Sequence record: MH791409.1 | Origin: Escherichia phage EcWhh-1 | DNA length: 64,000 bases | Strand: one strand, 5' to 3' | Shown: positions 46,657 to 50,319 of the stretch, piece after piece | Position numbering within the stretch: the first letter of the stretch is position 1 | Layout: the number at the start of each line of letters is the position of its first letter | Translations under genes and position numbers: made by a program | The notes under the pieces: model-generated | Seen by the model: the letters and a program-made list of their open reading frames with translations, nothing else | The model's database searches: none | Told to the model about the DNA's origin: nothing

Positions 46657-46848
46657 TTATATTACGAAAATAGCTTTGTCACCGTTGGCGTCAGTGACTT
46701 CGTACGTATCTTCGTGGTAAAGTGGGATAATCCAGGTCACACCATCATCAGCAATAACATGGATAGCTTCTTGGTCTTTTGATACGATTTCATATTCTTC
46801 GAACAACTCGAATACAGAAATCTTAGAGCCCGTACACATTGCACTCAT
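46657..46848 (-). CDS. hypothetical protein
   Basis: 63-aa ORF. Confidence 0.45.
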   Translation of the reverse strand: MSAMCTGSKISVFELFEEYEIVSKDQEAIHVIADDGVTWIIPLYHEDTYEVTDANGDKAIFVI

Positions 46849-47044
46849 ATTGTTCCCTTCTTTTAATCAGTTGACGATGGGCCTTTTTAAGTTTACGAAG
46901 CTGGCGCTTAGTTGGCCGTGCAACATAAGCTTGAGTAGTTACTCGTCCAAAAACACCATACTTAGGTGAAGGAGAATCAATAAAGACTTCCCACTGGCAG
47001 GAGTAACCATATACCGCTTTAGAGAATTGAGTTAAAACAAACAT
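46823..47044 (-). CDS. hypothetical basic protein, paralogue of 47866..48129
   Basis: 73-aa ORF; shared RPTKRQ(L/I)R..KKA.R motif. Confidence 0.5.
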   Translation of the reverse strand: MFVLTQFSKAVYGYSCQWEVFIDSPSPKYGVFGRVTTQAYVARPTKRQLRKLKKAHRQLIKRREQYECNVYGL

Positions 47045-47772: not shown

Positions 47773-47800
47773 TTTTAACTCCTCGTTAGTTGATAGGTCC

Positions 47801-47830
47801 ATAGTATCATTACCATAGACCATTGTAAAC
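47801..47830 (-). promoter_or_regulatory. early promoter upstream of the Spackle-like gene
   Basis: GTTTAC-N18-TACTAT-GGACCTATCAACTAACGAGGAG. Confidence 0.6.
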
Positions 47831-47865
47831 ACTTATTTTACTTTAGCGTAATCTAAAGTTACTAA

Positions 47866-48129
47866 CTATGATTCCATTATCAGACGACGTTGACGACGGA
47901 GAACCTCACCGCCGACATAAGCACGAAAAGCTTTTTTGCACTGACGAATCTGGCGCTTAGTAGGACGAACAGTAAATTCGTAGAACTCTACAAAATCCAT
48001 TTCACCTTTAGTTTCCTGAGAAAGGACAAGTTCCCAGCGACTGTTAATACGATCTGCATAAATCTTATGCTTACCGAAAGACCGGTCCCAAAAGCCACTT
48101 TTAACAGGCTTCATAATTTGGATATTCAT
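47866..48129 (-). CDS. hypothetical basic protein, paralogue of 46823..47044; start at MNIQIM
   Basis: ORF-track frame 47866..48180; ATG at 48129 has RBS GAGGAA. Confidence 0.5.
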   Translation of the reverse strand: MNIQIMKPVKSGFWDRSFGKHKIYADRINSRWELVLSQETKGEMDFVEFYEFTVRPTKRQIRQCKKAFRAYVGGEVLRRQRRLIMES

Positions 48130-48130
48130 T

Positions 48131-48271
48131 TTATTCCTCGTCTTCATGTTTATGAGCAATTTCTTCGAATTCACTGTCACAGTCTAAACAGGTTGCGTTG
48201 TCCCAAGCATCAAATACCGCTTGCTCTTCACAAACTGAACAGCCGCACACTACACATTCTACTTCTTCCAT
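48131..48271 (-). CDS. 46-aa Cys-rich acidic protein (possible zinc finger)
   Basis: Translation MEEVECVVCGCSVCEEQAVFDAWDNATCLDCDSEFEEIAHKHEDEE; read manually. Confidence 0.45.
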   Translation of the reverse strand: MEEVECVVCGCSVCEEQAVFDAWDNATCLDCDSEFEEIAHKHEDEE

Positions 48272-48478
48272 TTAGATTTCCTCAATGCGGGCATCATATT
48301 CAAAAACTTTATTGTCATTAACAAAGGCTTTCACCAGCGCATTATTCACTTCTGCATACTGCACCGTAACCCATTCAATCATATTTTGGTCACTAACATC
48401 CAGCGCAGTTTCTTTGGTAAACATATTACCATTTTCAAACCAACCAATAAACACTACGATCTCTTCTAATTTACGCAT
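48272..48478 (-). CDS. dmd: Dmd-like antitoxin (discriminator of mRNA degradation)
   Basis: From internal Met MRKLEEIVVF; FIGWFENGNMFTKE...VQYAEVNNALVKAFVNDNKV resembles recalled T4 Dmd. Confidence 0.7.
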   Translation of the reverse strand: MRKLEEIVVFIGWFENGNMFTKETALDVSDQNMIEWVTVQYAEVNNALVKAFVNDNKVFEYDARIEEI

Positions 48479-48479
48479 T

Positions 48480-48809
48480 TTAGATTTCCTCACAGAAGGC
48501 CCATTCAGCATGATAAACCGTGGCGCCTTTAGTATCATTTAAACAAACCACATCTACCGGAGCAATTACACGATAAAGACGAGGTTCTCCTCCCACTGAA
48601 CGAGCAGCTCGTCCAGCATAAATCTTAGCCAAACCGATATCTTCAGTAAAGAATACACGATTCAGGTTTTTCTTACGACCAGTTTCAGACAGAACTCCTG
48701 TTTCCTCAGGAGGACAAAGCATATTACCAATATTAGCCACACTACAACTTCCGTGATAATACACTTTATATTCTGCTTTACAGTCGATGGTTTTCATTTT
48801 GTTCTCCAA
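48480..48809 (-). CDS. hypothetical protein with N-terminal Y-H-G-S motif
   Basis: 109-aa ORF between gene 41 and dmd; preceded by a conserved early-promoter element. Confidence 0.5.
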   Translation of the reverse strand: MENKMKTIDCKAEYKVYYHGSCSVANIGNMLCPPEETGVLSETGRKKNLNRVFFTEDIGLAKIYAGRAARSVGGEPRLYRVIAPVDVVCLNDTKGATVYHAEWAFCEEI

Positions 48810-48821
48810 GTTGATAGGTCT

Positions 48822-48850
48822 ATAGTATCATGCCTATAGGAGATGTAAAC
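48822..48850 (-). promoter_or_regulatory. early promoter upstream of ORF 48480..48809
   Basis: GTTTAC-N17-TACTAT-AGACCTATCAACTT. Confidence 0.6.
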
Positions 48851-48856
48851 CCTTAA

Positions 48857-48879
48857 AACAAAAAAGGAGCCGAAGCTCC
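48857..48879 (-). terminator. rho-independent terminator after gene 41
   Basis: Minus-strand GGAGC-UUCG-GCUCC hairpin followed by UUUUUUG. Confidence 0.65.
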
Positions 48880-50319
48880 TTAAAATTTGATAGATGCTGC
48901 TAAATCGTCTAAATCACTTCTATTAACACGCGACTGGCGATTGACCTCTGCTTGGCGGTTCATTTCACCTGTAGCCTCACGAACAGTGTTCACTGGACCT
49001 GGGTTAAAATCGTCTTCAACTTCATACCAACGCTGGTTTCCTTTCTTAACACCAATCTTAAATTTGTTGTAGTAGCTCTTATCACCATAACGAGATTTAA
49101 GCTGCTTAACCATCTGCATACCCATCTGAGCAAACTCTTCTGTCTCGACCACACCTAACATGAAGTCTGCAGTATGTGCAATACCAAAGGATTCAGCGAT
49201 ATCAGCCATATCGATTTCGGCGGCAACGTTCGCACCACGAGTAGTCTGGGCTGCAGTCCACAACAATAATTTCTTCTCTACTGCAAGTCCACGTAGTTCT
49301 TCGGCAACCATCTTAATCAATCCATAACTGTTTTCAGAGAAAACTTTCGTACGGGATGAAGCACAGATAGCCAAGTAGTCGACGATAACGACCTGTGGGA
49401 CAAAGTTTTGTTTGAGCTTGTATTCGTTTAATAATGCACGGAATGTATCGGCATTAGCACCACCAGTAGGGTACTGTTTAATCTTTAAACGACCTAAAGT
49501 AGCAGTTGAACGCCACTTATCCATCTTAGCTTTATATTCAGGCCATGAGACGTGACCATCATCGATATCATCCAGTGATACATCCAGAAGGTTAGCATCG
49601 ATACGCTTAGCACATACTTCCTCTGCCATCTCCATAGAGATATAAAGAACATCATAACCGGATTGAAGGTAATCAGCAGCCAATGAACACAGTCCAAGAG
49701 ACTTACCTACGTTTGTTCCTGCCAACAATACGTTTTCAGTACCAAACTCTGCTCCACCCTTAGTAATCTTGTTCAGAATATTAAGACGGAATGGAACCTT
49801 ACGTGCTTTATCGGAATAACTTTTGAATCGTTCTTCATAGTCATCCATCCAGTCATGACCTAATTCGGAATCGAAACAAATCGATAATGCATCACGCATG
49901 ATATCTGGAATAGCACCAATACCTGGAAGTTTTCTATTTTGTTGCTCAACCGGAAGGTCGGCATTAGTTTGGATTTCAATGATTTTTGAAGTTGCATTAT
50001 ACATCGCTGCTTTCTGAACGTATTTCTCCGTTTCTTTAACCAACCATTCTTGGTCTTCGGGTCCAGCATTCAGTGAGCTTAAAAGCTCTTTAGCTCCTTG
50101 ATGTTCAACTTCTGAAAGCGTACTGTTATCTAATGCAATGCTCAATGCGTTCTTAGAAGGCACTGCATTATATTCATTGACGTGTTTTTTAATTTCTTTG
50201 AAAAGGGTCTTTGCAGGACCCTGGTCAAAATATGAATCATTCATATAAGGCCAGACCTTAGTGAAATAATCACTATTGCCTAGCAGTTGAGCCAAAATAG
50301 TTTCTACCACTTCCACCAC
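48880..50319 (-). CDS. 41: replicative DNA helicase gp41 (DnaB-like)
   Basis: 479-aa ORF with Walker A (GTNVGKS) and RecA-like core; T4 order uvsX-40-41. Confidence 0.94.
   Translation of the reverse strand: MVEVVETILAQLLGNSDYFTKVWPYMNDSYFDQGPAKTLFKEIKKHVNEYNAVPSKNALSIALDNSTLSEVEHQGAKELLSSLNAGPEDQEWLVKETEKYVQKAAMYNATSKIIEIQTNADLPVEQQNRKLPGIGAIPDIMRDALSICFDSELGHDWMDDYEERFKSYSDKARKVPFRLNILNKITKGGAEFGTENVLLAGTNVGKSLGLCSLAADYLQSGYDVLYISMEMAEEVCAKRIDANLLDVSLDDIDDGHVSWPEYKAKMDKWRSTATLGRLKIKQYPTGGANADTFRALLNEYKLKQNFVPQVVIVDYLAICASSRTKVFSENSYGLIKMVAEELRGLAVEKKLLLWTAAQTTRGANVAAEIDMADIAESFGIAHTADFMLGVVETEEFAQMGMQMVKQLKSRYGDKSYYNKFKIGVKKGNQRWYEVEDDFNPGPVNTVREATGEMNRQAEVNRQSRVNRSDLDDLAASIKF

Follow-up and report, generated by a model that had tools for sequence, protein, structure and literature searches.

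What is encoded between the replicative helicase gene 41 and dmd in those T-even phages that carry an additional small gene at this place, and does its product act with Dmd or independently of it? Dmd (discriminator of mRNA degradation) is the antitoxin of host RnlA and LsoA, a target that is experimentally established, and in T4 dmd is an early gene. The question is examined here in Escherichia phage EcWhh-1, a Dhakavirus (JS98-like T-even phage), on a stretch of 64,000 nucleotides, hereafter the window; the additional gene and its product are called ORF-X.

The locus is not without precedent. In the relevant passage of Iyer, Burroughs, Anantharaman and Aravind (2022, Viruses 14:1977, PMC9503650), a predicted ADP-ribosyltransferase (ART) of the H-Y-[EDQ] clade is placed directly upstream of Dmd in T-even-like phages of Escherichia, Shigella and Salmonella, and 'p0068-family ART + Dmd' is predicted to be a toxin-antitoxin system for which an RNA target is speculated. 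ORF-X is almost certainly of the same gene family, matched by that description, and because the description fits the EcWhh-1 locus, the ART-Dmd core is to be considered as already published on computational grounds. The family was already known as a prediction, ORF-X does not amount to a system of a new kind, and its interest is moderate. Our literature search found no experimental characterization of the family, and the HIDEN-SEQ preprint covers only T4 dmd against RnlAB.

Gene content and organization of the locus

Over region 47800-49300, the window shares 98.4% identity with Escherichia phage UP19 and about 93% with JS98. The gene order on the minus strand is T4-like, namely uvsX, 40, 41, ORF-X, dmd, a 46-aa ORF, an 87-aa ORF, spackle, more small ORFs and the primase gene 61 (Table 1). 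The preliminary description of this DNA had placed a 109-aa ORF between 41 and dmd; its position stands, its length does not. Indeed, the TTG start of the longer frame (48809) overlaps the Shine-Dalgarno sequence, whereas the ATG at 48797 opens a 105-aa protein (MKTIDCK...CEEI) that aligns with PHROG 2110 from end to end (1-105 of 105, E 1.5e-60) and is the annotated CDS of UP19, so that the TTG start was rejected. Relatives are abundant, with 122 close homologues, 247 cluster representatives at E<=1e-3 in an exhaustive HMM search and 609 phage records.

The smaller frame downstream, previously likened to T4 Dmd, proved to be just that, with a length of 68 aa instead of 67. It matches Pfam Dmd PF17587 at E 4.6e-20 and 72.2 bits (cut-off 27), residues 8-64 covering positions 6-59 of the 60 in the profile, and PHROG 2102 'Dmd' at E 7.6e-32, and it shares 57.9% identity with T4 Dmd over residues 8-64. 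Judged by these matches it is an unambiguous Dmd. Both ORFs are confirmed as real, and the number of relatives of ORF-X is far beyond chance.

Table 1. Features of the ORF-X and dmd locus of EcWhh-1 (positions are those of the window).
Feature	Position	Strand	Evidence or remark
Gene 41, replicative helicase	48880-50319	-	Upstream neighbour; 99.6% identity to JS98 gp41; annotated in UP19
Intrinsic-terminator-like hairpin AAGGAGCTTCGGCTCCTT followed by a T-run, directly 3' of gene 41	48864-48881	-	7 pairs, 4 of them G-C; loop of 4
Sigma-70 / T4-early-type promoter-like site, TTTACA-16 nt-TACTAT, TG before the -10	48822-48849	-	Consensus match only
Shine-Dalgarno GGAG, 6 nt 5' of the ORF-X ATG	48804-48807	-	Read from sequence
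ORF-X, 105 aa, Arr-like / p0068-like mini ADP-ribosyltransferase (putative), PHROG 2110	48480-48797	-	Profile, structure and alignment matches
Direct repeat TTTAGATTTCCTCA (14 nt, exact), copy 1	48479-48492		Last ORF-X codons E-E-I-stop and dmd Shine-Dalgarno; coding read on minus strand
dmd, 68 aa (stop codon included in the positions)	48272-48478	-	Pfam, PHROG and T4 Dmd comparison
Direct repeat TTTAGATTTCCTCA, copy 2	48271-48284		Last dmd codons E-E-I-stop and Shine-Dalgarno/start context of the 61.4-like ORF; exact match
46-aa Cys-rich ORF, PHROG 13952, 'gp61.4 hypothetical protein' in JS98	48131-48271	-	Start overlaps dmd stop; same transcription unit
87-aa ORF, PHROG 2375	47866-48129	-	Paralogue of the 73-aa ORF
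Second promoter-like site, same type (TTTACA-17-TACTAT with TG)	47801-47829	-	Just upstream of spackle
73-aa ORF, PHROG 3272	46823-47044	-	Paralogue of the 87-aa ORF

Read on the minus strand, signals and genes follow each other as gene 41, terminator, early-type promoter, ORF-X, dmd and 61.4. A single promoter-like site lies upstream of the adjacent ORF-X and dmd, a sequence scan of the locus found no terminator with a convincing T-run between them, one nucleotide separates the ORF-X stop from the dmd ATG, and the 46-aa ORF begins with an ATG that overlaps the dmd stop. As terminator and promoter-like site precede ORF-X and the gap to dmd is of 1 nt, ORF-X opens a compact unit to which dmd belongs as well. 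The promoter type suggests that ORF-X is expressed early.

Beside spackle, the second promoter-like site makes it seem that the 41-61 interval is split into several short early units. The 87-aa and 73-aa ORFs are small paralogues that have in common the basic motif RPTKRQ[IL]R..KKA.R, and each matches the PHROG of the other.

The two copies of TTTAGATTTCCTCA bracket dmd precisely. In phage fDHCT2 (locus L016), three copies occur (639-652, 843-856 and 1038-1051, with a single mismatch in one) along with two diverged tandem dmd paralogues that both end in ARIEEI, a type of tail absent from T4 and RB69 Dmd. The repeat looks like a cassette junction for the gain or duplication of dmd by recombination.

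ORF-X is a divergent relative of Arr

Three independent lines, namely structure prediction, profile search of the PDB and profile-profile comparison, all computed directly, converge in placing ORF-X on the Arr side of the ART superfamily, as a divergent member of minimal size. The AlphaFold2 model built from 41 homologues is confident (pLDDT 86, pTM 0.77) and has the split beta-sheet ART fold, and its top two Foldseek matches are Arr structures (2HW2 with prob 1.0 and TMq 0.60). PDB searches with the single sequence and with the alignment of the close family gave no match; only a wider family profile of 35 sequences, down to 28% identity, reached Arr, which was its best PDB match (E 8.8e-4), H15 pairing with Arr H19 and F49 with Arr Y49. 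Finally, hhalign of the ORF-X family against three bona fide plasmid Arr proteins gave 96.3% probability (E 1.6e-9, 73 columns). The ART-like fold that the preliminary description had put forward is thus supported by the model, by Foldseek with Arr at the top and by hhalign, and the Foldseek check that it had proposed returned such a fold instead of the absence of one. PADLOC gave no match for ORF-X or Dmd.

Alone, the ORF-X sequence reaches 15.1 bits (E 0.026) with Pfam PF12120 Arr-ms, under the gathering threshold of 25 bits, whereas fused relatives found at E 1e-28 to 1e-31 with the family profile pass this threshold at 26.8-31.5 bits; for this reason we regard ORF-X as a divergent sister of Arr and not as a core member. 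Many of the 247 representatives are embedded in proteins of 250-3900 aa, and in the giant ones the domain is found beside ART-PolyVal, NUDIX, Toprim, GNAT and DUF7178 domains. Phages and conjugative elements encode 'polyvalent' effector proteins of just this architecture, and such fusions are typical of effectors that are delivered into a host.

Arr (PF12120; PDB 2HW2 and 9IAF) is the closest family both by sequence profile and by Foldseek, and both proteins are unusually small for ARTs. They have in common the HG[ST] motif, an aromatic residue in strand 2 with a Thr two residues on, the helix that follows and strands 3-4. ORF-X differs by a Phe in place of Y49 and by an invariant loop of its own, SE-GRKKNL, and it lacks the DPN[VL] motif with D84, the conserved 'TDKKxPGNPT' loop and the C-terminal helix that caps rifampin. 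The catalytic residues of Arr are H19 (HGT motif), Y49 and D84 in DPN[VL], and its rifampin pocket is formed largely by the C-terminal helix alpha-2 (M126, L130, L133) together with A139/I141 (PMC6092378; PMC8120803).

Could ORF-X then be a true rifamycin-inactivating Arr, as some GenBank phage records label it? Besides the closeness of Arr in sequence and Foldseek searches, the annotation 'rifampin ADP-ribosyl transferase' of the homologue of Klebsiella phage KLB21 (70.5% identical) speaks for this. However, every alignment of ORF-X with Arr ends at Arr residue 82, just before DPN, and the NCBIfam equivalog NF033144 rifampin_ARR gives 12.9 bits against a cut-off of 130 (E 0.07, residues 11-75 only). 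Furthermore, ORF-X ends at residue 105, some 35-40 residues short of the Arr C-terminus and with no counterpart of Arr 105-143, and because the protein stops about 35 residues before Arr, helix alpha-2 and A139/I141 are missing. With neither the DPN/D84 motif nor the rifampin-binding elements, a rifampin-modifying function was rejected, and we give it hardly any credit. Other records fare no better: features named 'clamp loader subunit DNA polymerase' cover the ORF-X gene in Salmonella phage SHP1 (100% identical) and its homologue in Escherichia phage ESCO47 (91%). The 'clamp loader' and 'rifampin' labels (GenBank records KY979109.1, OM386662.1 and PP597383.1) look wrong or overstated, and 'Arr-like ADP-ribosyltransferase domain protein' would be a better label.

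Tpt1/KptA has an N-terminal RNA-binding lobe and an Arg-His-Arg-Arg tetrad, both of which are missing from ORF-X; in motif 2, ORF-X has a Phe and not a His, and Foldseek ranks Tpt1 well below Arr. With the anti-CRISPR mono-ADP-ribosyltransferase AcrIF11 (PDB 6KYF), the likeness is at the level of the fold only (20% identity over 70 residues).

Active-site residues and the nature of the acceptor

Across 269 sequences, the near-invariant positions, computed directly from the alignment, are Y14-H15-G16-[ST]17, P29-P30, T/S33, E38, R41, N44, F49, T51, A57, Y60-A61, R/K63, G69-G70, G91 and V94. The N-terminal Y-H-G-S motif seen in the preliminary description corresponds to Y14-H15-G16-S17 and is indeed conserved: among the 269 relatives, H15 and G16 of motif 1 (H15-G16-S17) are kept wherever the N-terminus is present, save in a single sequence that has a Tyr at position 15. 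In motif 2, F49-F50-T51 aligns with Arr Y49-I-T51, and position 49 is a Phe in 259 of 269 sequences and a Tyr in 9, which means that the aromatic stacking role is kept and the hydroxyl is lost; Y60 is a second, near-invariant aromatic residue.

The third catalytic residue is the degenerate one. In the C-terminal third (residues 66-104), no alignment column exceeds 70% D/E. At the expected positions 87/88, taken from alignment columns, 195 of 216 sequences have D/E/N/Q and only 130 of 216 have D/E. Conservation of E103 is confined to the close phage clade. Of the H-Y-E pattern suggested earlier, the His therefore holds, the motif 2 Tyr is replaced by F49 with Y60 as second aromatic, and the Glu, probably E103, is limited to one clade, so that on these alignments the triad is only two-thirds present.

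This raises the possibility of an inactive ART-fold protein that acts as a sponge of NAD+ or of an ADP-ribose-derived immune signal, or as a decoy of a host factor. The lack of a family-wide acid at the third position and the very small size of the protein (105 aa) fit such a binder. Nevertheless, H-G-[ST], F/Y-x-T and Y60, all of them near-invariant, are exactly what positions NAD in active ARTs, Tpt1 and the PARPs of H-Y-I/L type are active without a catalytic acid, and in the polyvalent proteins the domain sits among enzymatic effector domains; we consider an inactive protein distinctly unlikely. If active, ORF-X would either make do with a degenerate third residue or dispense with it, as Tpt1 and several PARPs do.

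The third acid is not conserved, and the nearest structural relatives, Tpt1 and Arr, act at a phosphate or a hydroxyl of acceptors other than proteins, so that ORF-X may use a small molecule or the end of a nucleic acid; the known members of the clade of ORF-X modify RNA phosphates or small molecules. We infer that an acceptor of this kind is at least as likely as a protein, the SE-GRKKNL loop being basic. A more specific proposal, which we put forward only tentatively, is that of a mini-ART active without the classical acid that modifies a non-protein acceptor early in infection, be it an RNA or DNA phosphate end as for Tpt1, an mRNA, a tRNA or a nucleotide that acts as an immune signal; ORF-X would then be a widespread counter-defence or RNA-protection enzyme of T4-like phages that takes part, independently of Dmd, in the RNA-level conflict in which Dmd is engaged.

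Another idea is that of an NAD+ glycohydrolase, or of an enzyme making a soluble ADP-ribose derivative, that depletes or rewires NAD+-dependent host immunity and does not modify macromolecules. Within the superfamily ORF-X indeed lies nearest to the Tpt1/Arr side, where the acceptors are not proteins, and in two giant proteins a NUDIX domain adjoins the ART domain. This adjacency is weak evidence because polyvalent proteins are strings of independent effectors, and T4-like phages need NAD+ for their own Alt, ModA and ModB; such an activity seems improbable to us.

The ART and Dmd are distributed largely independently

What is new here is that the ART and dmd are distributed largely independently of each other, as computed directly from gene order and occurrence. 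The ART was found in 609 phage records (Escherichia 215, Klebsiella 116, Acinetobacter 68, Aeromonas 62, Enterobacter 29, plus Cronobacter, Vibrio, Citrobacter and others), spanning T4-like phages of at least nine host genera. Dmd was found in 797 records, almost all from Escherichia, Shigella, 'Enterobacteria' or Yersinia phages, by tblastn with the 68-aa query, a survey that a very divergent Dmd elsewhere in ART-only genomes could escape.

These data bear directly on whether ORF-X and Dmd form a type II toxin-antitoxin pair, in which ORF-X would be an ART toxin, possibly with an RNA target, and Dmd its cognate antitoxin by direct binding, besides or instead of the inhibition of RnlA/LsoA. 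The pair was predicted from context in the passage of Iyer et al. (2022, PMC9503650) on this family, and according to the same passage some Klebsiella phages have another ART, a Mod-like one, beside Dmd. In line with this prediction, the genes are adjacent under one promoter, the 1-nt gap in EcWhh-1 and a 4-nt overlap in RB69 make translational coupling possible, and the two are kept together in Dhakavirus and Mosigvirus.

The comparison of genomes goes in the opposite direction. Where EcWhh-1, UP19 and RB69 have 41-ART-dmd and fDHCT2 has 41-ART-dmd-dmd, the same locus reads 41-dmd with no ART in T4 and 41-ART-spackle with no dmd in Yersinia phage phiR1-RT. Contrary to the toxin-antitoxin reading as it is given in the passage cited above, Dmd occurs here mostly without the ART and the ART mostly without Dmd, and at least about 300 of the 609 ART records (about half) come from genera in which Dmd was not detected by the survey. 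In Dmd-less phages the place downstream of the ART is taken by gp30.6, a tiny membrane peptide or some other ORF unrelated to Dmd, packed as tightly: there lie a hydrophobic peptide of 55-58 aa in RB16 and KLB21, a 38-aa peptide in Acinetobacter phage AbTZA1, gp30.6 in Aeromonas phage 44RR2.8t and a 156-aa protein in a Bragavirus, and in a Vibrio phage the gene string ends with the ART. Since 4-nt overlaps are also seen between the ART and neighbours other than Dmd, tight packing is the default of T4-like phages and no sign of partnership.

Conservation is also uneven. The ART shares 73.7% identity with its homologue of phage AbTZA1, for which gp41 reaches 58.6%, and 70.5% in Klebsiella slopekviruses, for which gp41 reaches about 54%; on these figures the ART is more conserved than the helicase, and far more so than Dmd (58% to T4). 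Dmd, moreover, already has its established host target. The occurrence of the two genes across phages thus argues against an obligatory pair, which was downgraded on this basis and which we hold to be unlikely; the distribution is a concrete reason to doubt the published reading.

Proposed function of ORF-X

The interpretation towards which we lean, with modest confidence, is that ORF-X is an autonomous, early, Arr-like mono-ADP-ribosyltransferase that shares a transcription unit with dmd and is not its obligate partner. Its activity would follow from fold and motifs. ORF-X would be a minimal (~12 kDa), NAD+-dependent mono-ADP-ribosyltransferase of the Arr-like ('p0068-like') clade, made from an early unit promoter-ORF-X-dmd-61.4 that would start just past the gene 41 terminator. 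NAD+ would be bound by H15-G16-S17 at the end of strand 1, F49-x-T51 in strand 2 and Y60 in the following helix, and further held by the invariant loop T33...S37-E38-x-G40-R41-K-K-N44-L45, the E38-R41-N44 part of which is modelled with a pLDDT of only 66-76. ADP-ribose would be passed to a target conserved across Gammaproteobacteria or T4-like phages, in the service of host takeover or counter-defence, and Dmd would be a promoter-sharing neighbour that acts against RnlA/LsoA. Timing, target and independence from Dmd are, like the activity, the parts of this proposal that we infer.

T-even phages already possess the ADP-ribosyltransferases Alt, ModA and ModB, which are early or injected and reprogram the host. 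These are larger proteins of the R-S-E clade and are unrelated to ORF-X in sequence; if active, ORF-X would be a fourth T-even ADP-ribosyltransferase, from a different clade. AcrIF11 is a small ART of mobile elements that acts as an enzymatic anti-defence factor, and by this example the earlier suggestion of a second anti-defence factor beside dmd remains tenable and, in our view, plausible. The ART, present in about 600 sequenced T4-like phages, heads a putatively early, anti-defence-rich transcription unit.

Other genomic contexts of the ART family

A scan of 185,579 GTDB species genomes returned four ART loci, two of them on phage-sized contigs and two being stand-alone genes of Patescibacteria with a transposase as neighbour; none of the four offered an informative bacterial operon context. 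Two distant homologues (P0221 and P0120) lie in phage-like runs of small ORFs that carry no annotation. The family is essentially borne by phages or mobile elements. The Patescibacteria (candidate phyla radiation) homologues, of 143-148 aa (L019 3902-4348 and L020 3923-4354), are the only matches in the GTDB species set whose genomic setting is not phage-like, and an IS-type integrase adjoins one of them.

In Pseudotevenvirus, Slopekvirus and Biquartavirus, a conserved protein of 250-300 aa that has no Pfam match precedes the ART (L003 1567-2472, RB16p228; L004 1680-2441, 44RR ORF171c; L009 1093-1968); it is labelled once 'DNA polymerase delta catalytic subunit', a doubtful label. Srd is encoded within about 1.5 kb downstream of the ART in these phages, and so is RNA ligase 2 in RB16 and KLB21. 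This alternative neighbourhood, itself conserved, could inform on the function of the ART more than dmd does.
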